A stretch of 32,549 nt of DNA. It comes from Hydrurus foetidus (taxonomy: Eukaryota). Position numbers and translations under genes: made by a program. Positions 1-25,148 of the stretch are shown in pieces (positions within the stretch are counted from its first letter, which is position 1; the number at the start of each line of letters is the position of its first letter). Below the pieces are notes generated by a model, which saw only the letters and a program-made list of their open reading frames with translations, did not search any database and was not told the origin of the DNA. The stretch covers positions 1-32,549 of the forward strand of contig UYFQ01000567.1 of NCBI GenBank assembly GCA_900617105.1, in the 5' to 3' direction.

Positions 1-2855
1 TGGCCGAAAAATTCGGGCATAATTTTAACTAAATTTAGATTTTTTATGGTATTTATACCTATAATTAAATCTATTTCAGAGTCTTCGGCAATGCGGACTG
101 GAAGAGAAAAGATGTATTTTAAAGAATCTTTTTAAATGATACAACAATATCAAGCACAGATTTGGATTCAATACACTTATTATCTAAACCAGAACAAATC
201 CACATAGGTGAATCGGAGTCGCGTAAGCGGTGTTCGCCCGTAGGCCCTCGAGGACTCTACGGTTAATGACGTCACCGACTTCGCACCCCGTATCGATCTG
301 GGCCAGTGCATCCATGCCTCTACTTTGAGGAGTAGGGCTTGTTGGAGCTGCTGGAGGATCCTTCCTTTTCTTTCGCCTTGTCGCGCGCGAAGGCCTCTCG
401 CTCGTTGCGTTGGCGGTCGCGGTCGCGGTTGTCGTTGTCTGCTTGTGCGCGGTCGTCTTTGCGAGGGCGCTCGTCTTGTCTTGGGCCATACTGATCTGTG
501 GGAGAGATATGTTGACTTGTAAGTAATCGTTTACTTTTTCAGGTAGTATTGCTGAAAGTAATGTTCGTGTTCGAGGTAAGTCGATACGCGGTAAAATTGC
601 GACACTGACAGGTGGTATTGAAAACTCACTTCTTCGTCTGTCGTCGTACGCCGGCTTTTTAACCTTGCTGTATGGTGGTGCACTGGTACCTTGCCGAGGG
701 TTTGACTTTTGTTGGGTGTTACCCATGTCAATGTCCTCTTCTTCCGTGGGGAATTCGAAGTTAGTCGGGACGTGGATTTGTTTTCGCTCCCGGGATACTC
801 CGCCCGATGGAAGATGTGCATCGATTACAAAATGTTTGTGACCGAGCCGTTTCCATTCGAGCCCCATAAGGGATTCGGACCACATTTTGTGCGAGTTGTT
901 GCAATGCTCGTTCATGTGGAATCGGCAATTGTAACGGTTGTGCCCGTTGCGCCCACAGGTGTGGCACAGCTTGGTGTTGCGGTCAAGGCCGGGGTAATGA
1001 TGTACCTCTGGCTGACGCTTTGCGATCGCCTTGTATGGTGGTGCGCGTGTGTCCTCCTCTGGATGGAATCCACTGCGTGCAGGTTGGAGGAGTATGATGC
1101 ATTAGACAACGAGCTTCGTTGTCTTTTTGCTTCCTCGGAAGTTGGGCTGTCTGGAGTGGTCCAGCGGTATCTGCTGTTCCCCAACTCCGCTGCGTCGTTG
1201 ACGCATTGACGTGCGATGTTGAGGTGGTCGCTGAGTCGCATGTACATGTCTTGGATGGTGTCTCTTTTTGTCTTCTTTATGGCTGTCTTTGTGGCCTCTA
1301 AGAATTTCATCCCGAGTGCGTTTTCTGCTGGAAGCTTTTTGTAAAATGCTTTGCAGATTTCGTTCTCGCGCTCGGGTGTGAGGTCGGTTCTATCTGGGTA
1401 GTACAGGCTGATGATCTCCTCAAACCGAGTGATCGATGCCTCTTCGACATATGCGTCAGCAAAGTCGTAAGCAAACTTGTAAGCTCTGATCTTCTCATTA
1501 CAATCGTAGGTCGTGTTGGACGTCCTAGTTGCTTGTGAGAAGCAGGCTGTCAAGTCCTTTGCGATTTGTCGGATCGATAGGGTGACCCCGCGGATGACTG
1601 GCCAAGTGGAACATTCTGGTTGGGTGTACCCAAGGACTGCCTTCATTCCATTGAGTCTGAACCTTATAGGTACCAGGGCATTCTCGGTAATGATCTGCTT
1701 CCAATGTGTTTTGAAATTGGGCAGGTTGGCTTGATCGTGGAATGCCTGGATGGTAGCGGACCATCTGTCAAGAGTTTCTCGGCGTTGAGCATGAATACCT
1801 CATTCATATTTATGAGTGTACGCTGTTGTTGGTAATTCTCGTCTGATAAGACTGAGGTATCACTCTGCTCATCGTCGATATCTTCCTCCACCTTGCGTCT
1901 GCGTGCAGCCTCTGTTGTTTTAATTTCAACGCGGCGCTTGTCGCCGCAGACGTCTTCGGTTTTGGCCTCTGAGTGGGATGGTCTTTTTAGACACATCTTC
2001 CTTAGACTCTTTTGCTGATGCAGTTTTTGACTGCTCTGCCTTTTTTGTCTTTTGTGGAACGATGATCTTTTTTCTTGTGGAAATCTTTTTTGTTTGCTTT
2101 GGCGGAGACTTAGTCTTGCGCTTCTCAGGAGAGATGGATTCAACTGACTCGTCTGACGATCGATCGTCCTCATCCGACACTGACTCCGCAACTATCACGT
2201 TATCGTCGTCGTTGTCGTTGATTTCTTCGTCGTTTTCGATGTCGCCCTCATCCTCCTCGTCCTCTCCCGACTCTAAGTCCACCTCCATCGAGGTTTGAAC
2301 CCTGGTCGTTCGAGATGATTTTCTGACGGGGATGGGCTCACTCTCGATTGACTTAGCATCATCAAGGATATCTTGTTCGTTTGCTTTCTTGTCTTTCTCG
2401 TTGCCTCCTCTTCTTCGTTTTGGTCTGCCTTTTGGGCTTCCCTCTACGTCGATGGTTTTTGCAACTGAGGTGCTAGAGCACGGACGAGATCGAGCGCAGA
2501 TCTCGCGTTCTCGTCTCTCGTCTTCGTTCGTTGCCTCTAGGACATATGCAATCATGGCCACTTCGTCTTCAGTCGTTGCGTCTGATGTCTTTTGAGCATC
2601 TTGTATACGCTTGCGTTCTGAAGACCGTTCGGAGTTGCGGGCGGCAATCTCGTCGGGAATGCGTGTGGCGGTGGCTGAGGCCTTTATGGCTTGTCTGGCC
2701 ATGAGAGATTTGCTTCGAGCAATGTTTTCTGCTCTCATCTTCTCCTCGGCCTTTCGTGCCTTGCGAATGCTAAGCATTGTCGCGCTTGGTAGGCCGAGGG
2801 AAGTAGTAATTGCTCCTGGGGAGGCTGATTTGTCGAGGATATCTTGAGCTTCCAT
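1..2855 (-). pseudogene. gag-protease of Gypsy A, split by several frameshifts (ORF pieces 1926-3020, 1664-2191, 912-1646, 184-915 and 1-~240)
   Basis: Consecutive overlapping ORF pieces: charged disordered N-terminus (MEAQ start at 2855), helical capsid-like segment, zinc knuckle, DTG protease. Frameshifts near 1970, 1730, 1650, 1085 and 238. Confidence 0.75.
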
Positions 2856-3416
2856 TGTCTTCGTCTTCGCTACGATAATGGTCGGTAGTTTATTGAAGGG
2901 ACCGCGACGGAACTCGGACGCGGTGAATTCAGGGAGAGGAAGGATAGGTTGAACTTTTGTGAAGACTGGTAGGTGTAGAGTGGAGTAGTAGAAAAAGGAG
3001 GATTGGAATGGTTTGGTCAATTTCGGGAGGAAATTGACGAGAATTTCGGGAGGAAATTTCTCGGCGAGGCCTGCGGAGCGAGCAATCCCACGAACGGAGC
3101 GTTGCTAATGGGTCCTTAAGTAGCGCTTTCGATGCTGAAAGCTACTACTGGCGTGTCGGCTTTCGTGTGACGAAAGTTTTCGATGGGATTTCTTGATATC
3201 GCGAGAAATCGCTGAGATCGAGCTTCGTTAGGACGAAGAGATAGAGGCTGTCGCTTTGCGAATCAACTCTCTATATAGTCGAATAGACGTTTCTGTTACA
3301 GAAAGCTATTGACACTCTCTTTTCGCTTCGAAAATGAGTCGGGTAGCGGTGTGGGAAATCTTGATTTGGCAATCGGCTTTCGTCTTGAAAGGCTAGCTGA
3401 TTCCAAGTAAGCTTAC

Positions 3417-3640
3417 TGTGGTCTCACTGAGGCCTTGGCTGGAACGGGAAACCGGACGGCGGAGGGCAAAGGTGAAATGGCTGGGGAACGATGCTAAAAG
3501 ATAGCAATGTGATTAGCTTACAGATAAGCACAGCAGATATCACGCAACAAATCGTATGGATCGGATCGTCCTCGATCCGAACCGTGCGTACGTTTGTACC
3601 CGAACCCGGTATACCCGGTATACTCGGTGTACGGGTCACA
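3417..3640 (-). repeat. 5' LTR of Gypsy A (~224 bp, TGTGACC...GAGACCACA)
   Basis: TG...CA termini; shares CTGTAAG, TTTCCCGTTCCA and AGACCACA motifs with the LTR of B. The second LTR is outside the window. Confidence 0.75.
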
Positions 3641-4760
3641 GTGCTTGATGGTAACCTTGAGTGAGATCAAGTACAGCAAACACTTTTGCTTGATGTGCAC
3701 CTATTCTACGCAACATCTCACCGATGTGTGGAATAGGATGGTTTATTTTCGGTACAATTGTTGAGATTCCGAAAATCAATACACATGCGCTTAGTTCCAT
3801 CAGATTTAGGAACTAGTAAAACTTGGCTATAATAAGCCGCGTTTGATTTTTTAACAATGTTATGTTTTTCAAGTTTGTTAATCTGACTAAGAATGTCAGC
3901 TTGATCAACTGTTGATTTAGCCCATGGAGGTTGTCTATTTTTAGTGACTTTCCATTGGTCGTCATTGACATTAAAGTCAAAGGGTGGAATATCAGCAGGA
4001 GTGGCCGAAAGTTCACTGCTAAATACATCCTTGAATTCGTGTACTAGTAACCGAAGTTTATTTTTCTGATCTTCATTACCTGCTAAGTTTATTAGCGAGA
4101 GTAGGTCAGTATCAGGAAATTCATCTATCCAAGGTGAAAACGAGTCCTTGATCGAGTCGTCGATTTCGTCCTCATCAGGGGGCACAGCCTCAAAAAGTCT
4201 TTCAGACTCTTGTATTAGTGAAGCTAGAATAACATGTGTTTGGGTTACTGCCGGTTTCACCTTTTGGGTTAAAGGATCGACCTTTGGGGAGCCATCAGAG
4301 GGTTGCAACTTCTCCTTAGGCTGACAGCCACACGTTATATCCACTTGCTCAGAAGATAAAACTTCCGCTAATGAGGATGTGCTTGATGAAGCATTGGCAG
4401 ATATCTGATCGGGGAAACGTGAAAATAAATTCAATTCGCGAATTGTTTTTCGTCCCACTATTAGATCAAATTTCGAATCGTTTAAAACATAAGCCGTGAT
4501 TTGAAAAGTATAATAATTATTTAAATCAAGGCAAAAATAAGAAAGAGTTAAGTCTATAGTGTCAGAAATATCATAACAATGATTATCTAATCCACTACAA
4601 ACTTTACACAATTTCTTTGAAGAGTTAGAAACGAATTGTGTGAAATTATGATTAGTTATAATGCGGCGATGTATAAAGTTGCCAGCAAAAGAGCCGGTGT
4701 CCAGGAGAGTAAAGACTCTATTACTTTTTTCCAGCATAACCTCCTGTGAGAGGGAGATAC
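3641..4760 (-). CDS. pol: Pol of Gypsy B: aspartic protease plus N-terminal RT (truncated by insertion, frameshift near 3745)
   Basis: LLDTGSFAGNFI, VCSGLD, DLIVGR, RMCIDFRNLN and DLTQGYHQ motifs. Confidence 0.9.
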
Positions 4761-6233
4761 GAAGAAAGGAATAAGTTCTGGATCATCGGAAAGAATAGAT
4801 GATGAATTTAGGTTGCATAGTTGCTCACCTTTGTGTTTCTTCGCAGCGTTTGTCGAGTCTGCTGTTGAAGTAGCAGGTTTTGACGAAGAGGAAGACGAAG
4901 AGGAAGACGATGAAGAAGAGGTCGATGTCTTAGGTAAAGTTGGAATAAACTTAGCCTTTGAATCGACTTTCAACAACTGCTTATGACCCTCAGAGTTGAT
5001 ATAGGGTGCGTCTGTACTGTTATAGTACGGTGACGTAGTGTAGAAACACGTGGCGACGAAATGACCAAGTCTCCCACAACCTGTGCAGAGAGGTCTTTCG
5101 AATTTGTCAGACTTGTCTGACTGCACTGATTGTTCGCTCTCTCGTGGACGTTTTTTGATTTTGTCCTGAGAGGAACGAGCAGGAGCTTTGATTTGGCGAG
5201 AGTTATCACCATACAAAGGAGAGACATCAATGAACCGTAAGGCATCAATTGATTCTCGTAGCTTAGCAAGCTGCGCAAGCCATACGAATCGAAAGTCTTC
5301 GATTGTAATGAGTCTTGGCGTTGTATTGTTAAGACTTCGCTGTAACACTGCTCTCCAATTGATAGGTTCGACTTGCAACTTATCGATGAGAATTTTAGTA
5401 GCCTGAAGTTGGAGAGTGGGTGTTGCATCAGGGAATCCATCAACAATATCAGCTAAAAGCTGATCTGTCTTGTCTTCCACTGATTCATCCTTCAGGTCGA
5501 ATTGAAGTGCGACCTGAGAGACAGTTTCAATGAAACTCAGCTTGTCAGTTCGATTGACAGCTGATGTAGGAACTGTGAGATTTAGTTCTCTACAGAACAA
5601 TTGATTCGACCAATGTTTCCAATTGTTACAGGAGTCGCGACGATCGGGATCAGTTGCAAACTTACGCTTGAGAAGCGTTGTAAACGATTGATGGTTGGAA
5701 ACATGGACTACATCAACTGGTTTAAATGGAGTTCCATTTGAAAGGAGGACTTCCATTACCCGTAGTACTTCCTGACGAGAGGGCACGGCGCTCAACTTAG
5801 GAGCTCTCTCACCCGTCTGTACATATTGCTGGGGTGGTGACATCGTCCTTGGAATAGGATTCTCAGCAATAGCTGGTGTCGCGTTTGAATCTGGTATCGC
5901 AGCCGAAGCTGGTATCGCAGCCGAAGCTGGTATCGCAGCCGAAGCTGGTGTCGCAGCCGAAGCTGGTTGCAATGACAAAGCAGATAACGCCGAAATGACA
6001 GGAATATCAATGACAGACATGACCGCAGGCTCCGAATTCCGCTGAAGAATCGGTGCAGACAGGTCGCCGGCGGGGTCCTGAGCCGCAGGTGGCCCAGGAG
6101 ACTCTGCGTCTCCACTACGATTGTGATGGTCGTCATAACGTTGTCGGAACGCGACGGCTACAGCACGAGGTTGCTGCTTTCGCCGAAGGGCGTTGATGGA
6201 GGATGTCTTTTTGTCTTGGCGGCGTAGAGCCAT
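4656..6233 (-). CDS. gag: Gag of Gypsy B (predicted spliced form ends at TAA 4723-4721)
   Basis: 525-aa ORF, low-complexity N-terminus, CCHC knuckle, Ser-rich tail, directly upstream of pol. Confidence 0.8.
   Translation of the reverse strand: MALRRQDKKTSSINALRRKQQPRAVAVAFRQRYDDHHNRSGDAESPGPPAAQDPAGDLSAPILQRNSEPAVMSVIDIPVISALSALSLQPASAATPASAAIPASAAIPASAAIPDSNATPAIAENPIPRTMSPPQQYVQTGERAPKLSAVPSRQEVLRVMEVLLSNGTPFKPVDVVHVSNHQSFTTLLKRKFATDPDRRDSCNNWKHWSNQLFCRELNLTVPTSAVNRTDKLSFIETVSQVALQFDLKDESVEDKTDQLLADIVDGFPDATPTLQLQATKILIDKLQVEPINWRAVLQRSLNNTTPRLITIEDFRFVWLAQLAKLRESIDALRFIDVSPLYGDNSRQIKAPARSSQDKIKKRPRESEQSVQSDKSDKFERPLCTGCGRLGHFVATCFYTTSPYYNSTDAPYINSEGHKQLLKVDSKAKFIPTLPKTSTSSSSSSSSSSSSSKPATSTADSTNAAKKHKGEQLCNLNSSSILSDDPELIPFFVSPSHRRLCWKKVIESLLSWTPALLLATLYIAAL
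5891..5967. repeat. 18-bp minisatellite (~4 copies, ctggtatcgcagccgaag) in gag B, encoding PASAAT/PASAAI repeats
   Basis: Directly visible tandem array. Confidence 0.95.
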
Positions 6234-6337
6234 AATTTTGACGTGATGGTTTAAGTTGGAGGAGTCGAAGACAAAAAGTTGGAAAAGAGAAAGACCTTTC
6301 TCGGAGGAAGCTTCGGTAATTGACCGAATATCGATAT

Positions 6338-6598
6338 TGTGGTCTGACGGCGGGGCCTAGGACGGAAGGCGAAGTTGGAACGGGAAAAGGACGGAAGGCG
6401 TGGACAAGCGGACGTGGAGTCAAGGTGATAAAGACTTGTGTTAATATCTTACAGTTAAATAGATGAAGGTGATGTGTACGCTAAGAGCACTCACGTCATA
6501 TATGGAACTAAGACCTAAACTGGAATCTGGGCGTCATATACCTATTGTACCTAGTAAACCTAGACACATTGTATCCATAGGGATGCAATAAGGCTACA
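6338..6598 (-). repeat. 5' LTR of Gypsy B (~261 bp, TGTAGCC...CAGACCACA)
   Basis: TG...CA termini; begins where the MULE-like reading frame loses coherence; 3' half similar to LTR A. Confidence 0.75.
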
Positions 6599-7029
6599 CC
6601 AGTAAGTCCACGATGGGCTTCTGGGGTGAGAACCGTAAGATCGGTATGATCGTGAACTCCATGGAAATACGAGATGTATTGTCCAATGGAGGAATCCATC
6701 TCGTATCTTCGCATAAAAGAGCAGCCAGTAAATTTGCATTTAAACTTAAACTGCAAGTCTACTGAGCTGACTTTTGAATAGTCCGATATTGCTGCATCAT
6801 GCACTACATCACCAAGAGACTGGTAAAGTATAAACCCAGTCTTATCCTCCACTAAATGTTCCTCCCATTTGAGAGCTTTCCCACGACCTTTCTTCTTTAC
6901 AGAGTTAGAAGGATCATTAATAACCTCCTCTGTAGAGATGTCAACATCAGATCCTGAATCAGTTGATGCTGGACTGTCTGGAATATGAATCCCAAAAGAT
7001 GTTTCGACGCCGAATACAGTGTTGGACAT
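6599..7029 (-). pseudogene. 5' fragment of a probable MULE/Mutator-type transposase (WRKY/FLYWCH-like zinc finger), interrupted by Gypsy B
   Basis: FKCKFTGC...HGVHDH (C-x4-C...H-x-H) followed by HRGLT; the C-terminal ~30 aa of the listed ORF are LTR B sequence. Confidence 0.55.
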
Positions 7030-7596
7030 AGTGAGGGTTGAAGGAATGAGGGTTGCAACGAAGTAATCTTTTCTAAGGAAATTTGAATAGATTACTCAGA
7101 TTCTGAAGATAACTTCCCAAGAAAAATTTGAGAACTACTGGAGATTTGAAGTGACTTACCGAGTATTGTTGCACAGTTGCAAGATTCTGGTGCTGCTTGA
7201 AGTAGATATACAGATTTTTTCACAAAAAAAGTCAACTTAAAATCAGTTTTTTTGGCAGAAAATTTCTACTGAATTTTTTTGGCGCGATTTCAGTTGTAAA
7301 AAATAATCCGATTCACTAGAATCTGTTATTCCGTCAATATATTCCGGGGTGCGTGCTCCAGATTAAAAAAGTCAAAGCACAATGGGTCCGTTTGGTAAAT
7401 TCGACGAAAAAAACGGCGTTTTTTCGAAATCACGATTAGGACTTCGGATCGAGATCTGAAAAATCGTGTTTTTTTCGATTTTCGAAAAACCCGTTTTACC
7501 AAACGGCCCTTTTTTTTGATGACCACCAGTTGCGAAAACTGAAATCCCACCTTTAACCTCATACGTGTTCATGCACAACACATAATAGAGTAAACG

Positions 7597-8766
7597 ATGT
7601 TCAATCCTGATGATGGTCTATTAAACCTTGAATTGCTGGTTGCTGTTGTTTTGGCAGCTGAGAATATTGACGGTGTGCATCCAGTCATCCAACACGACTC
7701 CGAGCTCACTGGTGCGAAGTACTTTAGTGAGCTCATGCGCACCGAAAATGTGAACCGATTTCATCAAGTTGCCAGAATGGATAAAGATACATTTAGTCTT
7801 CTACTTAATTTACTCATAGATGTTGGCGGATTGGTTAATTCGATGTACATAAGTGTGGGAGAGAAAGTCATGATATTAATTTATGTGCTAAGGGGGCATA
7901 CAAATCGTGAGACATGCGAGCGATGGCAACACAGCGGAGAAACAATATCGAAAATAGTTCATGAAGTAAGCGACGCCTTACTGGGATGTGGTTATGTTAT
8001 ATACAAACCAGCACAAGTTGGTGATCCAACACCGTCGCATATTTCCAATAGTGCTAAGTTTTCACCATATTTCAACGATTGTATTGGTGCTTTAGATGGG
8101 TCTCATATTCCTGCAATAATCCCCTTGGAGGATCAAGGCAGATACTTTAATCGGAAAAAATTTTTATCGCAGAATGTACTAGGTGTTGCAAATTTTGACT
8201 TATCGTTTGCATACGCTTTATATGGATGGGAAGGAACAGCTCATGATAGCAGAGTATTGGATGATGCCAAAAACAAAGGTCTACCACTTATACCTGGAAA
8301 GTACTACCTGGGTGATGCGGGGTACGGACTTAGTACCACCGTACTTACCCCCTATAGGGGTGTACGTTACCATTTACAGGAATTTGAAATCAACGGAAAT
8401 GGACCTGTCAACAGTAAGGAATTATTCAACTTAAGACATTCCTCATTACGCAATGTTGTAGAACGTATCTTCGGAATAGTAAAAGCTAGGTTTCCAGTAC
8501 TAAAAAAAATGAGCCCGTATGAGTTCGAATTTCAATGCGATATTGTGCAATGCTGTTTTTTACTGCATAATTTTGTTCACCTCAATCAAACATATGAAGA
8601 TCAATTCTATGATGAAGCTGGTAATTTTGTTGATAATGATATCGATGAAGACGTAGTTTATGAACCAGTAGAGGACGGTGTATACAATGCATTGAAGATA
8701 TGGCGCAATGGTATCGCGGAGGAGATGTGGGCTGATTATCTCGCATATATGGCACTAAATACCTAG
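7597..8766 (+). CDS. Harbinger transposase (DDE_Tnp_4, HARBI1-like)
   Basis: Motifs CIGALDGSHIP, GWEGTAHDSRV, YYLGDAGY and FNLRHSSLRNVVERIFG; intact 389-aa ORF. Confidence 0.95.
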   Translation: MFNPDDGLLNLELLVAVVLAAENIDGVHPVIQHDSELTGAKYFSELMRTENVNRFHQVARMDKDTFSLLLNLLIDVGGLVNSMYISVGEKVMILIYVLRGHTNRETCERWQHSGETISKIVHEVSDALLGCGYVIYKPAQVGDPTPSHISNSAKFSPYFNDCIGALDGSHIPAIIPLEDQGRYFNRKKFLSQNVLGVANFDLSFAYALYGWEGTAHDSRVLDDAKNKGLPLIPGKYYLGDAGYGLSTTVLTPYRGVRYHLQEFEINGNGPVNSKELFNLRHSSLRNVVERIFGIVKARFPVLKKMSPYEFEFQCDIVQCCFLLHNFVHLNQTYEDQFYDEAGNFVDNDIDEDVVYEPVEDGVYNALKIWRNGIAEEMWADYLAYMALNT

Positions 8767-9060
8767 GGAAAGGAACAATAAAATCTTTTTTTTTCGATAT
8801 ATCGAATTTAACATTAATCCTATTGATTTTTTGAGGTCATATCCTGACAGTTTTTTCGATTTATCTCATCAACCAGTGCTCTGATCGGGATTCTGAGCGT
8901 ATTTCCTGATCATAGTTAATTCTATTCATTATTCCAGTGGGGGGCTAAACTGATACCGGGGCAAAACTGATACCGCTCTGTACTATACTCCGCACAATCA
9001 ACTGACATACCAACCCTCACAACAACCAATTAGGACATCGCCGGCGTCGATCAGAACACC

Positions 9061-9549
9061 ATGGATGCAACAGTGCCAGTAGACGAAGATGCCTACAACC
9101 ACTGGATTGAATTTTCGGGCGGTTTGCCAACGCTTCAGCAGAAAAAATGGATAACAAGTAGAGTCTTGAACAAAATCGAGAGCGCGGCGGACATTGCAAA
9201 AAGATACAACATCCAAAGAAAGTATATCAATATCCTTGTTCAGAGGATGCGTAAAAGATCCTATCTCAGAATGCTGCCGGGCAGACCGCGAGTTCTTGAT
9301 GCTGAAAGCCAACAGAAAATTGAAACTTCCATCGTAGATATGACGTGCGAAAATGACGATCACCTTACCTCGGCAATCAAAGAGGAATTCCTTGCAACCC
9401 GCCTGAGATTGGGCAAAGTTGATGCAGCTGACGATAGTACTGACGTTGTTGATCCTGTTAAGATTTCGAGGAGATCACTAAAGCGCTATCTTATCCGCTT
9501 TCATCCTGGAGTATTTCAAACATTTGACGCGCACTCTGCTGTTGTCTGA
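9061..9549 (+). CDS. Stand-alone HTH protein homologous to the N-terminal DNA-binding region of the element's transposase
   Basis: QKKWI...IAKRYNIQRKYINILVQR...GRPRVLD...KISRRSLKRYL aligns by eye with EKVWL...LSGRYGISRKILNLWVNR...GRPKLFD...PISRRSIARYI. Confidence 0.8.
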   Translation: MDATVPVDEDAYNHWIEFSGGLPTLQQKKWITSRVLNKIESAADIAKRYNIQRKYINILVQRMRKRSYLRMLPGRPRVLDAESQQKIETSIVDMTCENDDHLTSAIKEEFLATRLRLGKVDAADDSTDVVDPVKISRRSLKRYLIRFHPGVFQTFDAHSAVV

Positions 9550-9606
9550 AGATGAAGCTCAAACTGTTCATATTGATTCTGAATTATCCGTTTATTTACA
9601 AATAGA

Positions 9607-11381
9607 TTAAATATCTTCTACTGCTACTACTCCTACATTTTTTGCTCTTTTGTTCGGCTTGGGGTTCTGCTTCTTTAACTCTGCATCTGCTTTGCGCTTG
9701 ACAGCTTTGGCAACCTTCTCTGTCTCGAGTGCTTCTTTCGCCAGCTTCTTGTCGTCCTCACTAGCGATAAATGCGCAGTTAGTTAGGAATACAAATCTTC
9801 GACGGTTGAGGACGAGATCATCAATGCATCTACCATTTGCCCTGGACATGTTGTCCATATCTAAGCGTTCCATGTCCTTCATAGACAACTCCCCATTGGT
9901 CTTCATCTGATTGCAAAGGAATGGCATGTGCTCCCAAACTCTCGTGATCTCATCAGTAGTGAAAGCAGTTTTGCACTGACCCAAAATTTTCTCAACATCG
10001 CATCCCCCGCCCTTTCTGTCGAACTGGCCGCACGTACTGAATGAGTCGGTAATTGTGTCTGATCTTAAAGTTGACTGAATTATATGTTTCACTACCTGCA
10101 GTCCCTCTGCTATTGCTTTCACATGCGCCGCAGACATTTTCTTCCCAACGAAAGTTTCATGCAGCTTGATGAAGTTTTTGTGACGCTCGGTAGATTTGGA
10201 AATCAGTATATCCTTGATATTCTTAAGTCCCTTTTTTTTGTTTTGGATGCCATAAAACATGTCCCAACATCGCACGGCTGGTAGATTGAGGTTGTAGAGG
10301 CAGGCAACTTCCCAATGACGATATTGTGTTCTAAGCACATGTTGGCAACCTCAGTGGTTCTCAGCGGCTTGATCTGAACATCCTCCCCATCAAGTGTAAA
10401 ATAAGCTGGTGTCGTCAGAGGTATTTGATTTAGTATCCTTATGTCAGTGACAAACTTGATGAAGACACTTGAGAACCACCATCTATAGAACTCCTGGTTG
10501 ACGCTTCGAGTTTTAGAAAATACTACCCAACCAGTCGACAGTATATCAGTCCCGATTCCCAGACCGGATACCTCATGGTAGTCTATTGTCCCCTCCACCA
10601 TGTTGTCGTCAGCAATTATGTAAACAGGAGGAGCAGAGACACCCATAGCAGTGATACACATATAGAACTTGATGAAAAATGCTGTCAAGGTAGACCCTTT
10701 CACTGCCATGACTTTCAACGGTCCTTTCTTCTCAACCCTCTCTAGTGGGTCATAGAGAACCTGAACCTTGTCTGTTAGGCCACCCGAAGTTTGATATGAA
10801 GTCCCATCGGCATTGATCGCTAGATCAGGAACCGTCAAAGGCATCATCAAGAAGTGCGCCACAGCGACGGTAACAGCATTGAGCTTATCCGAAGTAGCGA
10901 GAGCTCTTGCGTCGGTGGTCTGCTCCGCATTACCGACTTTGAGACCGATGGCATCAATGTAACGTGCTATGGACCTCCGTGAGATAGGCTTGACCGATGA
11001 TCCAGCAACAGCTTTTGTTTTGACGACTGCTTTCACGTGCTCTGACTGTAAATTGCGAACGAAATCTGATTTTACTGTGTTGTGAATATTGCCCGAAACA
11101 GACGATCTCAGTTCTGCTTTCGCGGGAGAATCAAATAATTTTGGTCTGCCAGCATCGTGCACCTTTCCATTCTTTGAGAATCTGTTAACCCAAAGATTCA
11201 ATATTTTCCTGGAAATGCCATAGCGTCCAGAGAGTTCTGGTGAAGATACTCCATGATAGAAGATCTCATGAATAAGCCAAACTTTCTCAGCTGTCGAGAT
11301 TGAATTCGATTTTAATTTTGGTGTCCGTCTCCCCCAAGGACTAGGGAGCCTCTCGGGAGTCGATGGCGGAGAAGTTGACAT
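9607..11381 (-). CDS. pogo-like (DDE_1-type) transposase, ~591 aa, one frameshift at the A8 run near 10232-10239
   Basis: N-terminal HTH plus GRPK; catalytic motifs INADGT, TLDGE and LPASTTSIYQPCDVG (39 residues between the 2nd and 3rd Asp); ORFs 10203-11381 and 9607-10338 overlap. Confidence 0.85.
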
Positions 11382-11605
11382 TTCACCGCGATGTCCTAAT
11401 TGGTTGTTGTGAGGGTTGGTATGTCAGTTGATTGTGCGGAGTATAGTACAGAGCGGTATCAGTTTTGCCCCGGTATCAGTTTAGCCCCCCACTGGTATTC
11501 CCGACTTAGACGAATTGACTCCGTGTGGAAGAAAAAAAACCAGATTCGGTCCAAGGTTTTTTTTAAAAATTACGACCCCTCAAAATTTTATCCGGGCCTC
11601 CGTAC

Positions 11606-12585
11606 TTATTTGCCCTCTAGGGCATCTAACTTACTCTTTATGAACAGAGTTTGCTGCGCATCAGTGAATGATAAGAACTGATTGACATATGAGGAATTGT
11701 CTGCTAACAAGCCTATGAAGTCCATCTCTTTTTGCATGTCTAACAGTTCAGAGTGCTTATCTTTTAAAATACTAACAGCCTTATCGAATGGAGATAGCCT
11801 ATTCTGGTAAGTATCCTGATTTGACACTATCTTTGAGAGCAATTCATGAACTAAACTGACAGGCTTGGATTTTACCACTCTTACAAACGGTCGCACTGTC
11901 TTCAGCTCTTTTGCAACTCTGTCGACATTGCTTACTTGGGTTACTTCCACCTCACTGATGTCATCTTCATCCACCGGCACCCTTTTCCTGTGGCTTGATG
12001 CTGAATCAAGCGAAGGCGCTTCCAAATCCACCACGGCTGGAGAAAGGAAATCCACAGAGACGCTTGGAGCAGATTGACGAGGGGTCATAGGAGCCCTAGC
12101 AAATCGACCAGTTGCTGAATCCGCTGTGTATTAGGGAAGTACAAATATTAGCATATAAAACGAGTATTAATGTGTATTTAAGATTACTTACGTCCAAATA
12201 ATGCCGTTAATTCGTTAAAAAACATCAATGGTCCATCGGCAAACTCAGCAGCTTTTGGATGGCTAGCATAATACTCGTTTAATGCTTCTGGGGCACCAGT
12301 GACCATACCACTTGCATCCATCCCAAAACCACTTTGGTTTGCATACTTTGTGAACTCAAGGTATTTCTTCTTCAAAGAAAAACATTGAGTTTTAAGCATC
12401 TCTTTGTTATACTCTAAACCTGTCCTGATTTTGAACTCGTCAGCTATGATCTGCCAAGCAGTCTTGTCGTTAGACAAGTTTGCAAATCTGCCGGCAGAAT
12501 GCTTCGTCAGTAGGTCGATCAGAACTTTGCGGTTCATGTTCGACCACTTCGCCACGTCCTTTTTCTTGAAGGACGTCGACATCAT
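11606..12585 (-). CDS. Harbinger Myb/SANT-like DNA-binding protein; exons 12585-12192 and 12123-11606
   Basis: Trp-spaced Myb/SANT-like region (KWSNMNRKVLIDLL...AWQIIADEF...LKKKY); GTAAGT...CTAAT...CAG intron 12191-12124 joins the two ORFs in frame (LFGP-DSATGRFA). Confidence 0.9.
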
Positions 12586-12842
12586 TATGCTATATTGTGT
12601 AGTATGTAGTGCATAAACGATGGTTGCTACGACAGTTACCTCGATATTTTTGAACCAGGATGATCGGGTCCCAGACGATTCGAGGGGAAAGCTCTTTCTC
12701 GTGGAATCGCGATTTCTCGAAAAAAAATCGGTTTCAGAAATTTACCAAACACCGGATTTGAAAAAATTGAGAAATTTCAAAAAAACGGGGGGAAATCTCG
12801 TGGGATCGCGATTTTTCGGTTTACCAAACGCACCCAATAGCT

Positions 12843-13035
12843 CAAGGGTCGTGTTTAATGCATTTGTCGTTTTCAATCGGGTACCAGCCCCGCACACAAC
12901 AACACACAGCATTTTTCATGCTGGGCGGTCCCCCTGGGGAATGTTTTATTTTTCAGTCATGAAAAATGCTGTGTGTTGTTGTGTGGGGGGCTGGTACCCG
13001 ATTAAAAACGACAAATGCATTAAACACGACCCTTG
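12843..13035. mobile_element. 193-bp foldback MITE with ~78-bp TIRs
   Basis: 12843-12920 is the reverse complement of 12958-13035 with about 2 mismatches; AGCT on both flanks. Confidence 0.85.
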
Positions 13036-13152
13036 AGCTCCCACGCAGGTTCTGTCTCGATGATACTATATCTACTACATATTCATATTCATATTCATAA
13101 TCTCTTCATTCATATCCTCTGCTCAACTTTGTGAGGCACGAGAGTCTACACA

Positions 13153-14380
13153 ATGGCACTACGGATTTCGGAAGCCGTTCTCTCTGGAGTAAGCACATGG
13201 AGGGATTTTGAACTCCATAAAATCAAAGAAACTCTAGAGCATAATAACCACCAACGTGAAATTAATCTTATGAAGAAGCACCACGCAACGGAAGAAAATT
13301 TATCGAAAAGAATATATCTAGTCGAGAAGTATACTGAAATAGAGCAGCATTTTCAACAGTTGAATGCCGATCTCCTGACCGTCAGCAAAGAAAGCGGTTA
13401 GACAATATATGTCACAACTACTCTGTATTAACTGAACTTCGTCATTTTGATGAGAATTTTCATCCCGAAAACTTCACAGAACGCGACATGTTCGATCAGA
13501 GAAATCAGCAATTTTCGACCATCCTAGTTGCTACCACGATTGTTCTTTCTGGCAAGTCCTGTGATGTATTCGACCAGAACATATTCTCAACCCGTCGCAT
13601 GATGACTAATTCCTTGTCGTCACTCTCTCAGGTCTCATAACAGTCCTTATCCAAGGGGTTCTGCCAAATGGAACAAGTGAATTCCTTCAGATCGTGTATG
13701 CAATATCAAACAGCGGGTCTATGGCATTACTATTCATTTGCTCAGTTCTGTGTTTAGAAGTCATTTGGAGGGCAAGTCAATTTATGTACAAACGATCGAA
13801 GGTGCACACTTGCGATCTCGGAAATGCGATCAAAAAAACGAAGCAAATGATGACCAAAGTGCGTGGGATCAAAGCGTACGAGATGGCAAGCATTGACCGT
13901 CCCAGTTCTCGAAGACACATATCAGGAATGAGCGATGCGGAAATACTCGACGAGTTCGCTCAGCATGAAAGTGAGATTCAGCGCTACCTGCAGCAGCGAC
14001 AAAAAATTATTGATAAGGCAGCCTACATGGTTTTCTCGGAGGATGGTACCAGCATCGATAAGGAATCATTCTCACATTTTTGGCGCGATTCTTGTGGGTA
14101 TTACAGCAATGCAGCAATTCTATTTTTCTATGGTGGGAGTGCTCTACTATTCGTTGCTACAATGACCTATATGTGGGCAAGATTCGACTATGCTCTACTG
14201 AGCCCCATTGCAGCCAAAGTCTCAGTCTACCTCATATCCTTCGCCTTATTGGCTTCTCTAATCCTGGTAGTATATCTGAGATACTACGACAGGCAATACC
14301 TGAAGAGCAAAACGAAATTTGAGAGCGACAACAGAAAAGCAGAATTACTCCTGAATTTGGCTGAAAGGGACATGAAATGA
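13153..14380 (+). CDS. Host multi-pass (about 4 TM) membrane protein; exons 13153-13396, 13480-13551, 13632-14380
   Basis: Phase-consistent introns (GT-AG 13397-13479; GC-AG 13552-13631) give a continuous frame with a coiled N-terminus and four hydrophobic helices. Confidence 0.8.
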
Positions 14381-14446
14381 AAGGGCAGTGGCATGATGGG
14401 AGTTTAAAGTGAAAAGCAATTCTGTCCGAAAGATTGAAACTTATGC

Positions 14447-14586
14447 TGCGATCTCAGAACCATTATTAAAAAACGAAGCACATGACGATCAAAGTATGCG
14501 GTATCAAAGCATATCAAATGGTCAGTTTTGACCATCCCAGATCATGAAGACACACAGGAGAACGAGTTCGCGAAGCATGAAGGTGA
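14447..14586 (+). pseudogene. Degenerate partial duplicate of 13811-13974 (internal part of the upstream gene)
   Basis: Collinear shared words tgcgatctc, aaaaaacgaagca, caaagt, atcaaagc, tgacc.tcccag, gaagacaca, cgagttcgc, agcatgaa; contains indels and stops. Confidence 0.75.
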
Positions 14587-15605
14587 ATGGACCTCTTACC
14601 TCTGTTAATGGTGTCGGACCTTTGGTTGTTAGAAGCACCACGGAGATCAAAATAGAGAAAACGTCTCCTTTCGAACGAGTTGGACAGATTACAATTGTTG
14701 AGGAATCTCGTGGTAGTAATCAGCTTTACGTCATGATTTTGTTGGGAGTCGATGTCAACAACCAACTGATCGTCAGAAATGATATAGGCCGTTTCATATA
14801 ACCGATATCGCCGCTGAGCTCAATGCCTAGTCAGGAATGTCTTAGCAAAAGATGAGCAGTAGATGTCATGTGTATCTATCAAAATCGCTCGGATGCGTAA
14901 TTCCTGAGTGATAACGTTGATACGGGCGTCCGGCGATCTCCTCACTTCTCGTGAAATCGCATCCCCATTCTCAACACTGTTGTTTGGGACCTTCAGGACA
15001 AACAGATTGAAGGGAGATGCCTCGCCAGCAGGGTTCTTGAGTTGTGTGGGATCTGCGCATAATGTCCTGATACTTGAATTATTCTTATTCCGAATACTCA
15101 TGAGAGAAACAAAACCGATCAGAGTGTGATATTTCGGGATCCGTAATCCCTTCCGATATTTCTAAGGCAGAGCTATACTGATGTTTCTAAGGCAAGAATC
15201 CGATGCATTATGCCATCCAGTGCCGTCCGTTTTGAAATTCTTCGTGGAAGTTGGTTACTTTTTTATCCGATAATAACAAGTTACATCTACTATCTGATTT
15301 ATACTTCAACTTACAGCCGACATCTTCTACTGCGTGATATCTTGCCGGAACAATGCAAACTCAACGCGAATTTCCCAGGGAGGGGAACTTGGACCCATTT
15401 TACTAGAATTTACAAAACTTCCAGTACTTGCTGGTGATCCGAAGTGATTGATTCCTAAAATCTGAGTCAGCTTATCTTGCATAGAAACGAGCTGAAGGAG
15501 CTTCAAAGTACCCCAGAACGCTTATCATGAAGTTGATCACCTCGATTTGAAGCCCGTGCCGCTCAGCAGGACTCATCGACGTATTCTAGGATACAACACT
15601 GCTAC

Positions 15606-15833
15606 TATGAAATGAGCAAAATACCCAACACGTGCATATTCCGAAGTCTTCAAGTGAAGGAAAATCATTTGGAAGTTGGGTTTCCGTTCGAGTGAGTAGA
15701 GATTAAGGATGAAATATGAAATTAGCAGAATACCCACCACGTGCATATTCCGAAGTCTACAAATGAAGGAAAATCATTTGGAAGTTGGGTTTCCGTTCGA
15801 GTGAGTGAGATTGAGGATGAAATATGAAATGAG
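15606..15833. repeat. Tandem duplication of a ~109-bp unit upstream of the phosphatase gene
   Basis: Two near-identical copies of cacgtgcatattccgaagtct...tcatttggaagttgggtttccgttcgagtgagt...ggatgaaatatgaaat. Confidence 0.9.
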
Positions 15834-15992
15834 ACGAAAGCTGGAGAAAGTCCAGGGTCTTGGGTCTTGGGTCTCGGGGGCAAAACGGTGAAAAGGAATC
15901 CAGATCGCATGAACACCTTTGGAATTTCCCCAAAAAATTAAAAGTCAATCCGTTGTGCTTCCTCTGTTTTCTGCGGAATTTCAGAGGCAAAT

Positions 15993-17566
15993 ATGACACC
16001 CGAAGATATCCTATTGAATCAGGTGAGAAGCAATAAAGAGCAAGGAACTCAGGCATCTGCAAAGGACTTTTGAATTATCCATCACCACAGAGATTTCACC
16101 AGGAAAGCGAGATTCGCGGCTTCAGCATGAGCTCTCCAGCCTCCCCATACGCCGGTAGGACCACCGCAACTGCAATAATTGTCATTAAATTACTCTAATT
16201 CTGTTCTGTCGATGTTTGCATCTGACAAAGCACCGAATTCTCCGATCGCGTCATCGAAGAGACCTCGAGCCCCAGTCACTGTCGGTACGTCGAATGTTAC
16301 TGGCGAAATCGCGAGATCATTCACAAAATCTGACGTATTAAATCGAACAGTTGATGAAAGTTTGACATTTTGCTACTTCTAAACATCCTTTTACAGATTT
16401 GAGATCTCCCGGGAAGCCTCAGTCGCAACCGAGGTTCTACTGTCTTCAATCAATCTCAGATCCATCGCTCAATTATCTGTGTCAGCTCTGCATCCTCCAT
16501 CCTCTGATATCATATACCCACCAATGAAGGGAAATCGTTGGGACAACAGCTGCCTCAAGACGGATAAGTGGAAGCACAGATGAGACTCGCGTCGCTGGTG
16601 TACTGTTTTCTCCAGCCCTTAAAGACGATGCCGACGATAGTTTTGAAGGAGCCCACGCCGATGGAGCAGATGAAGAAGTTGATAATGAAGATGATGAAGA
16701 TGACGTGTTCAATCCATATCTATTTATAGCTGGTTTGCCCCCTCATTCAAGCGTCGTTATCAAGGACAAGATATGTCTTCCGCCTCTACCAAAGAATGGA
16801 ACACACCGCACTACCCTAGCCCTTGACCTAGACGAAACGCTGGTCCATTGCACTGTCGAACCGATTACCAAACCAGACCTTACCTTTGTGGTGACATTCA
16901 ACGGTACCATGTATCAAGTTTATGTGAGGAAGCGACCATATCTCGACTACTTTCTCGACTTAGTTTCCAAAAGCTTCGAGGTGAGTTTCTTAATCGTATC
17001 CCTGTAGATTTGCAAAGAATTCTTTCTTGACCTAACGCCTATAACTACCGACGCTGATTGGTCTTCACAACACATTACGTTCCGTTCTATTGACTAGGTC
17101 GTCATATTCACAGCATCTCAAAAAGTTTATGCCGATGTTCTTCTGGATCTCCTAGACCCCGAGAAAAAGCTCATAGGACACAGACTGTTCCGTGACAGCT
17201 GTCTGTTCGTTCAGGGTAACTATTTGAAGGATCTCACTGTTCTGGGGCGCGACATGAAAAAGGTAAATCGTCTATCACGCGACTGTTTCTACTACCCACC
17301 CTAACGATAATACTGTACTGTCGCAGTCGATACTCGTGGACAACTCCCCACACGCTTACGGCTATGATTTAGACAACGGGGTCCCTATTGAGTCTTGGTT
17401 TGATGATCCCTCAGATACCGAACTCTTGAAGTTAGCGGGGTTTTTACAAGGCGTAACAGATGTAGACGATGTCAGGCCGATTATTAAGAACCATTTCAAA
17501 TCCTATGAATTAGTGCATAACGCCACCCTCGGGTTCGCCACAGTCACCACTGCACCACCATTCTAA
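15993..17566 (+). CDS. SCP/CTD small phosphatase-like HAD phosphatase (NIF domain, CTDSPL2-like); exons 15993-16022, 16091-16154, 16231-16284, 16397-16433, 16530-16980, 17098-17262, 17327-17566
   Basis: DLDETLVH (DxDxT/V), YVRKRP, IFTAS, RLFRDSC, YLKDL and VDNSP motifs; all six GT-AG introns phase-consistent. The first exon is less certain (alternative ATG at 16127). Confidence 0.9.
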
Positions 17567-18183
17567 GATCAGATCAAGTATTATGGTGAATCGCTGCCTG
17601 ATCTACAGGACAGAGAGAAAATTCTTTAACCACTCCTTAGTTTCAAAAGCCTCGTGAGTAGTTTCGTGCGAATATTTGACACACATTTTGGTGTTGCCAT
17701 CAACGAAATGAAACCATGTTACACAGAAGAGCTGTGTTAAGTGTCCTTGCCTACATCCCTGCCACAATTACCACCCACTCATCAATGCCTCTACAGCTTT
17801 CACATATACATCACATCCCAAAACCTCCTAATCTTGACTGTCGATTATATCTCTATCCAAGAGACCCCGAATGTCCTAACGTTTATTGAACTACAGACTA
17901 CGGAGGTCCGCTATTTTAACTCCGCGAAGAACGGAGCACACTGCACGAAGATTATTATTTTTGCTTCTTTTATTTCTGTGTAAAGTTGTTGACTTAAAGT
18001 AAGCTCTCAGATGATCTTTATATGATGCATCTGAATAGAAAACTGTACATCGACATTTTTAAATTATATACTTACTGTAGCATAAACTAATTGAAAGTAG
18101 TCCATTAAATTTTTCTATCGCAAGACAACTGATGCCACATGGTAGTAGCGAACTATTTAGACGCTCATATTCGCGAATTTGAG

Positions 18184-19112: not shown

Positions 19113-19526
<414 letters not shown>

Positions 19527-19598
19527 CACCCTCATGCTACAACACATTTGTTCGCAGTTTGATAATCAAGCATTTGTTGTCTACTAATACTTAATATT

Positions 19599-22500
19599 CT
19601 AAGCTAAGTCTTTGTCGGGCCACCCAGTGACTCCGTGTCTCTCCAATCTGAATTGTCCCCCCTGAAGCGGCTTCGTCAACATGTTAGCGTACATGTCCTT
19701 CGTCCCGAGGTGCACCACCCTTGCCTCTCCCATGTCCACCCACTCCTTCAGCCAAAAGTATCTGATGGAAATATGTCTTGTGCGCTCCGCCGCTGACCGC
19801 CCGCGGTCTATGAGAGCCATGCATGACATGTTGTCTTGATAGATCGTAACCGGCGCGCACGCGTGTCCTTGCCCTATGATGAAATTTCTCACGTGTAAAG
19901 CTTGGTTAGATGAGTCGGACAGTGCGACCAGCTCTGCCTCCGTGCTTGACTTCGTCACGATCTGCTGCTTCACGGACTTGCAATGTACTGCACCCCTTTC
20001 TCCCACCACAACGCAGCTCCCAGTGTGTGATCTCCCATCGGGATGTACCCCGAACGCAGCATCGATCAGGACACTCACGGCTATTCCCTTCGCTCCCGGT
20101 GCGAGCACTATGCCTCGGTCTCTGGTCGCCCATACATATCTCATCAGACGGTCCAACTTGGTCAGGTCGTCCGTGGTGCACTTGGTCACTCTGGTGGCGA
20201 GGAAAGCTACTGCTGTCAGGCAGTCCGGTCTCGTTCTCTTCGCTAAGTATAGCATCTTCGCTACTCGGCGATGGAAGATCACTCTCTCTTCCTCGCTCGC
20301 GTTTTCGATGTCCGGCCTCACATCGAATAGTCCCTCGGTCGCGGGAGTCTGCGCACCCTTGGCTGTCCCCGCCTCCTTCAGCATATCGTCCACGTAACCT
20401 GTCATTGAAACTTTGGCTACACCCTGCGAGGTTAAGTCAAACACCATCCCAAGGTAGTTCACTACAGGTCCGTCTTTCCTTGTTATATCTCCATACCTAA
20501 TGACCAGTCCCTCTGCAAGTGCTTCGATCATGTCTGCATCGGTGCTCGTGATCATCAAGTCGTCCACGTGGACAGCTATGGTGCATTGCACCCCGAGTGG
20601 GTTCCTTTTGTTGAACACGCATATGTCGATCGCATTGGGAGTGTACCCTAGACCGTGTAGACTCGCCTTCAGGTTCTCGTACCAGAGCGCCGCGGATTCC
20701 ACGCATCCGTATAGTGCCTTGTCTAGTCTCACTACGACGCACCCTCTGTCATTCATGTACCTCGAGTAGTGTGGTGCAAGCTTTGTCATCATCCCTGTCA
20801 TGTTCTTGTCTAAACGCATATGCACGGCAAGCCCGGCGTTCATGTCCGCGTTGAGGTATGCACCGCTGATGTCTATGACCGTCACCCTACGACCCTCGTG
20901 TGCCGCGATGCATAACAGAGTGAATACTGAGCTGGTCCCCACTGTCGGAGCGGACAAGTCATCGTAGAGTGTCTTGTCTTGTTGGTCTCCGCCCGCGACG
21001 AGCCTCGCCTTGAGTTTCTCGAATTCACCGCTGGCTAGGAATTTCTCTTTGAGGAACATGCTCGATCGGATGATGCGCGCCTTCTCCTCTCTCGGGAGTC
21101 TCTGTTTGTCCACTGGCGTCCATACTTTCTTTTTGATCATTTGCCCGAGCTCTTTGAGTATCACGCTCTCGGCTTCTTTCCCTCTCGTGCGCAGTGCCTC
21201 ATTCACTGAGATGTTCAACACGTATTCCTTCCAGTCGCCACCTACGGAGTTATAGTTACGAGTGAGTAGCGCAGCTCCATGTTTGTCGCCTCTAAACATG
21301 TCCATCAGTTTCTGTCTGGGCAACACTAGATGTCCTACGCTGGAGTATCTCTCTGCCGCCTCGGTTGCCTCCTCCATAATTCCGAGGTCTATCGCTCCGT
21401 TCTCTCCGTAGTCCTCAGGCACTCCCTGTTCATCACCGTATTCCACTCGCACTGCATCTGGACTCCCTACTTCAAGTTGTCTGAAGCTGCTCAGCAGATC
21501 GTCCATGTCAACCACCCTAGGCTCTATCCTTACTCTTGGTGTCGGTATCATATCGTCCGCGTAGTTCGACTCCTCACTGTAAGGTTCCTCCTCGTGCGCA
21601 TCGAGCGCGATATTCATCTCTTGGTCTGCTTCAACGTATATGAGCTCTTGCTCGTGACTCTCATCCATGAGCGACACCGCTGGATCTACCCCGTTGTTAA
21701 CCTCAGTCTGAATTGTCTCAGGTAGACCGTTTCTCATCTCACCGTCTTGCTCGAACCTAACAATGCGTTTCTCTAACTCACCCTTTCCTTTGACCCTACC
21801 ATCTGCTAGTTCAAGCTCATTTAGTTTCTTGTAACGGACTCTGGCATGGGCATAATAATGAATTGGTCCCTGTTCACTACCTTCCCGGTCGCTAAAGACA
21901 GCATTCGTACGGTCCCCGTACAGTTCCCTAATGGCAATATTACTACGCAGTCCTCGGTTCGCAGTTTTAGAGTCGCGTCGGTGTTCGGCACTGTACATTG
22001 AACATAGTCGCCGAATGAATAGCGGAATTCTCTTTTGCCGTCTGGTTTCCTCCCTATGAAGGCCTCCCTCGGGCTAGGGCCCCATTCCCGTTCTCCGTAC
22101 GGTTCGTAGTTCACCCTAGAAACTACGTACATTACGCACATAGCAATACCCACACTCGATAATGTGAAAGGCAGAATGTATACATGTGAACGTAACCTTT
22201 CTTTGATAACTCGAATCCTTCGTTCGATTCTAGCGACGTGGCCGCCCGCTCCACTGACATCGACATCTACTCCGAGCTTCCCTAGTTCGTCGACCAGAGT
22301 GATCACAGCTCCCTCTCCATCGCTCATGATCACCGAGGTCTTAAATCCTTGGGATCCTAGCACTCCTAGAAAATGGGCTATTCCTTTCCTCACGTGCTCT
22401 GCTGACCTGGTCGACTTCTTGAGCACTAGGTTGTTTAGACTATATGCTATAGTTAGTCCTAGAGGAGTCGCTAGGCCGATTAGAATAGCAATTTTGTCAA

Positions 22501-24421: not shown

Positions 24422-24446
24422 GACAATGCCAACGCCTGTCAAATTA

Positions 24447-24671
24447 TGTTGGAGAACCTCTTCGTTCCGAGCACCCTAGATCGGAACGTGGACCTGTGGT
24501 CTGGAGGTTCGATTACCAAGGCTTGTGAAATGAGACGCTTGTTGCCAATAATCACTCGTTAGTTTGACTGTGCTGAATCCCTGTCTACAGCCCCGAGTCC
24601 CTTTCAACGCAACAACAAATCAAACCTACACTACACTTGAAGTACGGTGTTCTGCTCAGGCCCATACATCT

Positions 24672-24712
<41 letters not shown>

Positions 24713-24784
24713 TAATCCGTACGTCCGTACGAATGCATAAGTACACATAATGTGTTCGTGTCATGAACTCAGATATATCCAATA
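24447..24784 (-). repeat. Copia 5' LTR (338 bp) containing (CA)18
   Basis: Matches the other LTR except for microsatellite length and about 2 substitutions, one in the terminal dinucleotide. Confidence 0.95.
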
Positions 24785-24786
24785 TA

Positions 24787-25148
24787 CGGGCTGGTAGCGC
24801 CAAGAAGCAGGAATTTTTTTCGTTTTGACACTTCTTTTTTTCTGTCGAACGGTTTCTCATTTGTGATTGCTCAAAAGAACCGAAATCATCTCTGCTACAC
24901 CCCCACGCTTTTCGCTTGTTTTCAAAATTCGTATTTCGTGAACTTTTACCCTTTTTACCCAAAATAGCATGACTTTTGAGCACTATGGTGCACAATAACA
25001 ATTTACCAGCGTATTTAAATGCCAAGCAAATTACACGGCCTTGTATGAACGATTTTTCGACATCTTTCCATCCGTTTAGTTTTTCCTGGAGTGTTCCAGA
25101 AAAAAACATGAAATAAGGAATTTTACGTTTCTTGGCGCTACCAGCCTG
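24787..25148. mobile_element. Tc1/mariner-type MITE (362 bp, TA flanks)
   Basis: TA-CGGGCTGGTAGCGCCAAGAA ... TTCTTGGCGCTACCAGCCTG-TA inverted termini; AT-rich non-coding interior. Confidence 0.85.

Follow-up and report, generated by a model that had tools for sequence, protein, structure and literature searches.

The gag-pol junction of element B and its surroundings

The window, meaning the whole 32,549-nt stretch of Hydrurus foetidus DNA that was analyzed (contig UYFQ01000567.1), contained three Gypsy fragments, other transposons and a few host genes with GT-AG introns. Gypsy fragments A (approximately 1-3100) and B (approximately 3641-6600) lay on the minus strand, and fragment C (28700 to the window end) on the plus strand. 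The gag frame of element B started at an ATG at 6233 and included a CCHC zinc knuckle (5087-5046). Its first exon (4829-6233, minus strand) ended at a predicted splice donor, AAAG/GTGAGC, at 4828, which was in phase 1 and 1405 nt from the ATG. A pyrimidine tract followed by CACAG formed the predicted acceptor, ending at 4744. A GT donor with consensus context, a pyrimidine tract and a YAG acceptor were therefore all present around a putative retained or alternative intron (4744-4828) that measured 85 nt in this copy and 86 nt (3n+2) in others. A host intron at 16981, behind a host phosphatase exon (16528-16980), starts with GTGAG, as does that of element B. Splicing in silico gave a Gag of 475 aa terminated by TAA at 4723-4721, 22 nt before the codon of the catalytic protease Asp (LLDTG, 4701-4699; a homologue has the retropepsin fold). 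Exon 2 (4721-4743) would thus be dual-coded, with a 7-residue Gag tail plus the stop in the spliced frame and a protease loop in the pol frame. In the pol frame, the 3' end of the intron encoded a protease strand, as predicted on the homologue L006, and the last intron codon was CAG (Gln). Unspliced, the gag frame of the window copy encoded 525 aa, and pol (4782-3718) was one base off. The donor, acceptor, 85-nt phase-1 intron, stop and one-base offset named by an earlier sequence-only reading of this DNA were all recovered from the window and its ORFs.

The pol fragment of B (3641-4782; protease and the start of RT) carried a frameshift near 3718 and broke off near 3641, with loose ends at 3641-3644. 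No LTR pair for B was found within the window, a Pfam scan of nine Gypsy fragments from the window returned no domain match, and a search of viral contigs returned no relatives.

Element A carried a homologous phase-1 intron of 134 nt (496-629, minus strand; 3n+2), which was also the best pick of the frame-blind script described below. Its spliced frame remained open for 58 codons and encoded a charged tail up to a TAG at 322-320, 28 nt before the Asp codon. Element C, a degraded copy, had a candidate intron of 101 nt (32077-32177, plus strand; 3n+2) with a weak acceptor, followed by a TAG at 32225-32227; the script did not rank this interval best, and C was left out of the intron statistics. 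A 10-nt donor-like word occurred twice in C (31788 and 32077, 289 nt apart), with possible 3n+2 acceptors giving intervals of 155 and 101 nt. The earlier statement that an 86-nt intron in B would match those of A and C was correct for phase (3n+2) but not for length (134 and 101 nt). B had also been described as an independent second instance of the architecture; the homologous site across the lineage speaks for conservation and not for a separate origin.

Several other elements were observed in the window. A PIF/Harbinger-like element with DDE_Tnp_4 and Myb/SANT genes (7594-12741) was interrupted by a DDE_1-like element (8931-11498) with inverted ends of 111 nt, whose empty site was present in runs X1 and X2 (joint 8929>11496). 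A Copia-type element, recognized by eye from the order of its ORF motifs, occupied 19113-24787, and its two LTRs contained a CA microsatellite of differing length. At 12839-13039, two nearly perfect inverted copies of 82 nt flanked a spacer of 37 nt, a MITE-like arrangement with raised depth in X1.

Conservation of the junction in related elements

Searching with the protease region of B returned 207 protein matches with E values no higher than 0.001; 150 of them were listed, and the stretches upstream of 53 were inspected. Many of the 53 showed, by eye, Lys-Gly followed by Lys/Glu/Asn approximately 30-40 residues before a Gln located behind a hydrophobic run. An alignment of 50 sequences led to 27 metagenome loci in 13 families, with a median protease identity of 35% (12 representatives plus B and C). 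The frame was open for at least 150 codons before the protease Asp in 21 of the 27 loci, and L001, L003 and L023 each consisted of one ORF (1754-1845 aa) encoding RT, RNase H, integrase and a chromodomain. RT, RNase H and integrase followed the D[TS]G motif in that order in these three and in the proteins P0047 and P0158; since B itself is cut off within RT, the domain order was taken from the relatives. The chromodomain (PF00385) was detected in five of six proteins scanned, the sixth being a fragment that ended after RT. The best solved-structure match of L023 was Ty3 Gag-Pol (E 4.7e-74), and a 25-mer was common to both ends in five of eight long loci tried. The domain order and the Ty3 match place the relatives in Ty3/Gypsy and rule out Ty1/Copia. 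We do not assign them to the chromoviruses, because chromodomain lineages of stramenopiles can fall outside that group according to the accessible portions of two reports (PMC12477816, PMC5348765). Among the hits of the host phosphatase exon that carry a species label, the top one came from Ochromonadaceae sp. CCMP2298 (77% over 60% of the query); on the basis of this single labelled hit, the host of the lineage is likely a golden alga (chrysophyte).

The intron signature was then scored by a frame-blind script that selected, for each locus, the best GT..AG pair of 60-200 nt within 420 nt before the Asp codon. A phase-1 donor with a phase-0 acceptor (3n+2) was the choice for 24 of the 27 loci and for 11 of the 13 families; among control windows, these phases were selected in 24 of 137 from pol and 4 of 38 from gag (28 of 175 together). 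Junction scores averaged 12.4, compared with 10.4 in pol and 10.2 in gag windows (p=1e-8), a p-value that serves as a guide only because splice-site weights had been set by hand after the loci were inspected and families share ancestry. The control windows were not dereplicated, and the intron of L022 was picked by hand. The interval lay at the homologous place, directly ahead of the protease, in 22 of the 27 loci and, by majority, in 10 of 13 families. The other five were set aside: L016 and L022 each had a best pair with the expected phase that lay upstream of the homologous position, L002 was not a fused element (23 codons open upstream), and the AAG acceptor of L007 and L025 was missed by the script.

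In 12 family representatives the interval was 86-161 nt long and always 3n+2. The donor codon was xGT throughout (Gly in 8, Ser in 3, Cys in 1), and the acceptor codon was CAG in 11 and AAG in 1, a count that is partly circular as acceptors were picked by the splice scorer. When the Gln after the hydrophobic strand was picked from protein sequence only, 9 of 11 picks were CAG (13 examined), compared with 210 of 610 Gln codons in these ORFs; the two CAA picks were later Gln residues behind the acceptor Gln. Introns were T-richer and G-poorer than their flanks in all 14 cases. The motif CTRAY was present 55-12 nt from the acceptor in 9 of 14 introns and in 167 of 1064 background windows (16%), whose composition was not matched to that of introns; neither B nor A had it at the usual distance. 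Lys, Arg and Gly made up 122 of 225 residues (54%) of the spliced tails, compared with 59 of 225 (26%) when the pol frame was read, 77 of 225 for the third frame and a background of 21%. Tails comprised 22 residues in L004, 38 in L001 and 58 in A; several families had tails of only 5-7 residues. The presence of a stop ahead of the Asp codon did not exceed chance (P=0.24) and was dropped as evidence.

A structure model of the L006 junction plus protease (74 sequences, mean pLDDT 76.7) placed a strand at residues 35-42, encoded by the intron tract just before the acceptor Gln 44. A loop encoded by exon 2 came next, followed by the strand carrying Asp 61; residues 1-27 were of low confidence. In Foldseek the fold matched retroviral proteases and Ddi1; these matches come without residue ranges, and the model suggests that the intron-encoded strand belongs to the protease core. 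If the intron encodes a protease strand, it probably cannot be lost without losing the protease. The T-richness of the tract would in part reflect a protein constraint, as the tract encodes a hydrophobic strand. Judging from the model, exon 2 likely has two readings, one giving a protease loop of variable length and the other the Gag tail.

Three loci of one family (L005, L007 and L025) had 3n+2 intervals of 116, 125 and 125 nt with AAG acceptors and Lys-rich spliced tails. All three had a TGA-CTA pair in frame, three codons inside the intron and 176-185 nt before the Asp codon, and gag was open for 130-440 codons upstream. UGA-CUA is a readthrough context. These loci may represent a variant that combines splicing with readthrough, or may share a nonsense mutation.

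Extra base and intron-less form in public runs

The sequence-only reading had proposed that one base added near 4752 would fuse gag with pol and lengthen the intron to 86 nt, and contigs from four of six public runs compared bear this out. An extra plus-strand G behind 4751 was present in nine contigs of X1, 15 of X2, one of X12 and one of X18; X19 and X20 had no cover at 4751. The place where the window copy lacks this base is at 4751-4752 (read on the minus strand). The X12 contig was 1175 nt long (4512-5685) with 23 substitutions and this single gap, and the X18 contig was otherwise identical to the window. Contigs with the extra base accounted for a depth of 79,029 of approximately 183,000 in X1, the tables giving no state for the rest. 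With this base, B has an interval of 86 nt (3n+2) and a fused gag-pol. The Gag end of B matched 10 proteins, of which P0281 and P0285 read through the intron in frame and none ended in the spliced tail; P0281, 80% identical to the Gag end of B, reads straight into LLDTG. Of 12 indels listed for positions 1-17700 (a further 60 lay beyond the listing), nine were single bases that the window lacks, all in repeats, and the unique DNA of the window matched X1 without gaps. Taken together, the deletions in repeats and the gap-free unique DNA make an assembly error plausible, and we ascribe the one-base gag/pol offset to a defect in this copy or in the way it was assembled. The missing single bases include those at 1757, 1917 and 1974 that break the gag of element A, and frameshifts in the repeats of the window (1-7400) may be assembly errors.

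One X1 contig joined 4742 to 4828 (4742>4828), skipping 85 positions with CT..AC borders, that is, GT..AG on the minus strand. Its depth was 657.5, compared with approximately 114 for single-copy host DNA, so that, with depth as a rough guide, the intron-less form amounted to about six single-copy equivalents or 0.8% of the extra-base depth. X1 is a DNA run: its contigs were unbroken over 13020-15684 (depth 115) and 15777-17700 (depth 113), host introns included. Element B allows 12,183 possible deletions of 50-400 nt with at least 3 nt of microhomology, of which 111 would fit GT-AG borders; a single one coincides with the predicted interval. Five joints were found in B in X1; the other four were non-canonical, and one of them was deeper (1027). 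The predicted joint had 3 nt of microhomology and a short side of 26 nt, less than the 31 nt required for bridging, and a single contig carried it. The joint was absent from the lists of X2, X12, X18, X19 and X20, and no joint at the intron of A was present among the 15 of 20 joints listed.

Loss of the precise GT-AG interval from DNA is the expected product of reverse-transcribed spliced RNA, and intron loss is the classic assay for retroelements (PMC12786077, accessible portion). The joint is thus consistent with splicing of the RNA, which we infer from DNA sequence. The RNA labels of X18, X19 and X20 are guesses, no run being recorded as RNA; the sole contig over the B intron with such a label (X18, 165 nt, depth 3.8) retained the intron, and no spliced junction of B was seen in RNA among the run contigs covering the site. 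The 4829/4743 junction for which the sequence-only reading had called was accordingly found as an exact joint in one contig, but in DNA and not in RNA. X20, guessed to be RNA and labelled as another organism, covered only 3683-4741 of B at a depth of approximately 690 and no host gene. Its contig ending at 4741 continued from 3683, as would a circular or tandemly repeated unit of about 1.06 kb; the junction missed by one base a clean back-splice, in which a weak donor at 3683 would be joined to the acceptor at 4744.

Proposed Gag-terminating splicing, its alternatives and known parallels

We consider it highly probable that the B lineage comprises single-ORF Ty3/Gypsy elements that keep a GT-AG, 3n+2 interval at the gag-protease junction, and that alternative splicing of this interval sets the Gag:Pol ratio. 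The Gag-terminating intron of the sequence-only reading gains support from conservation in divergent relatives, the extra base in other copies and the intron-less DNA form, with splicing itself deduced from these. RNA that retains the intron would serve as genome and as Gag-Pol mRNA, its pyrimidine tract being translated into a protease strand that terminates with Gln (CAG). Removal of the intron would move the frame by 3n+2, and exon 2 would be read in its second frame as a short Gly/Lys/Arg-rich tail with a stop before the catalytic Asp, yielding Gag only. Spliced RNA may occasionally be packaged and reverse-transcribed, giving rare intron-less DNA copies.

The window copy taken by itself suggests separate gag and pol frames joined by programmed -1 frameshifting, as its pol lies in the -1 frame relative to gag with an overlap from 4782 to 4656. 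This explanation has a negligible probability in our judgment: other copies with the extra base are fused, and nine of the 12 listed indels are bases that the window lacks, pointing to deletion errors in its repeats. Further, no in-register X XXY YYZ heptamer occurred in the last 60 codons of the window gag frame, and the fold at 4722-4640 had a z of -1.0 in pseudoknot-free folding. A conserved -1 slippery site with a stimulatory structure and no splicing was what the sequence-only reading had set against its own model; the missing heptamer, the modest z and the fused relatives all speak against that outcome. Functional splicing could also be lacking altogether, with a single Gag-Pol made, excess Gag arising through degradation of Pol as in Tf1, the splice signals being by-products of the protein and the DNA joint a microhomology deletion. 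The relatives are single-ORF, Tf1 provides a precedent within Ty3/Gypsy (PMC7175516, accessible portion), the tract does encode a hydrophobic strand, the joint has 3 nt of microhomology among further deletions in X1, and no RNA junction was seen. However, xGT is kept under three different residues, CAG is favored over CAA, and intervals of 86-161 nt are nevertheless always 3n+2 and followed by basic tails in the spliced frame; the DNA joint, moreover, fell exactly at sites named beforehand. We regard this account as very unlikely.

It is very unlikely, in our estimate, that the intron is spliced mainly to provide a basic Gag C-terminus for RNA binding, or to limit the element through RNA decay. 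The K/R/G-rich tails, which reach 22 residues in L004, 38 in L001 and 58 in A, would suit the former, and spliced RNA without early polyadenylation would suit the latter, as it would have a very long 3' UTR, a decay signal discussed in the accessible part of PMC5580714. However, tails of only 5-7 residues occur in several families, and an element with a single ORF must have some means of making surplus Gag. Such roles are compatible with the setting of the Gag:Pol ratio, and the two are not exclusive.

A broader scenario, which we favor by a small measure, is that a chromodomain-bearing algal Ty3/Gypsy lineage evolved a coding intron inside the start of the protease independently of Copia. In this scenario the tract would double as a protease strand, the next exon would encode both a protease loop and a basic nucleocapsid tail, spliced RNA would occasionally be retrotransposed, and the UGA of L005, L007 and L025 would mark an intermediate between splicing and readthrough. 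For the large excess of Gag over Pol in single-ORF Ty3/Gypsy elements, the literature as far as accessible offers Pol degradation, in Tf1. An xGT codon, a T-rich strand, an in-frame CAG and a 3n+2 spacing form a signature with which single-ORF elements can be screened, and annotation as a single ORF can hide a second mRNA.

Gag-only spliced RNAs in the literature covered, in its accessible portions, all belong to Copia, and the Gypsy splicing cases there are env, Ogre and CRR (also PMC7730604, PMC9784723, PMC13547354, PMC2864245). No Gag-terminating intron in Gypsy was found in this coverage of openly accessible texts and abstracts; sources that could be relevant to novelty include Fig. S2B of PMC5580714, on Gypsy splicing, and Repbase-type element annotations. 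The accessible text of PMC5580714 reports no such conserved splicing in Arabidopsis Ty3/Gypsy. The following comparisons likewise draw on the accessible portions of the sources cited. The fission yeast Ty3/Gypsy elements Tf1 and Tf2 share the single gag-pol ORF but obtain excess Gag by Pol degradation, and no intron is described there (PMC7175516). Chromodomain Gypsy lineages of stramenopile hosts, in Ectocarpus (PMC12477816) and the oomycete element Chronos (PMC5348765), likewise have a chromodomain fused to integrase, but those texts describe no gag-terminating intron. In Ogre, a plant Ty3/Gypsy element, a partly spliced internal intron also tunes polyprotein expression, whereas it lies between PR and RT and its splicing is required for the full polyprotein (PMC6317226, PMC3735527). 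The shGAG of EVADE and other Arabidopsis Ty1/Copia elements and Drosophila copia are similar in that a splicing-coupled frameshift turns a single ORF into a Gag-only mRNA; their introns, however, take in the entire protease or the complete pol, and their splicing is tied to early polyadenylation (PMC5580714, PMC7197481).

The closest parallel is BARE1 of barley (Ty1/Copia), in which RT-PCR demonstrated that a 104-nt intron at the end of gag is alternatively spliced (PMC3735527, accessible portion). BARE1 likewise has a single ORF with a short U-rich intron at the gag/protease boundary, and its splicing shifts the frame so that Gag stops a few codons later. Of the features of BARE1 and the EVD shGAG, the single fused ORF was found in relatives and in other copies of B, and the boundary intron with a frame shift and a Gag stop was found in silico in 22 of 27 loci as well as in A and B. 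The differences are that BARE1 is a Copia element of a plant studied by RT-PCR, whereas the elements here are Ty3/Gypsy, likely from a chrysophyte, and known from DNA sequence. In addition, the B-type intron, unlike that of BARE1 in the text available, is conserved across families with approximately 35% protease identity and tails of 5-58 residues. The B lineage works like BARE1 but is not Copia. Gag-terminating splicing likely arose twice, in Copia and in Gypsy, and, if this is true, the two superfamilies converged on the same Gag-only splicing trick.
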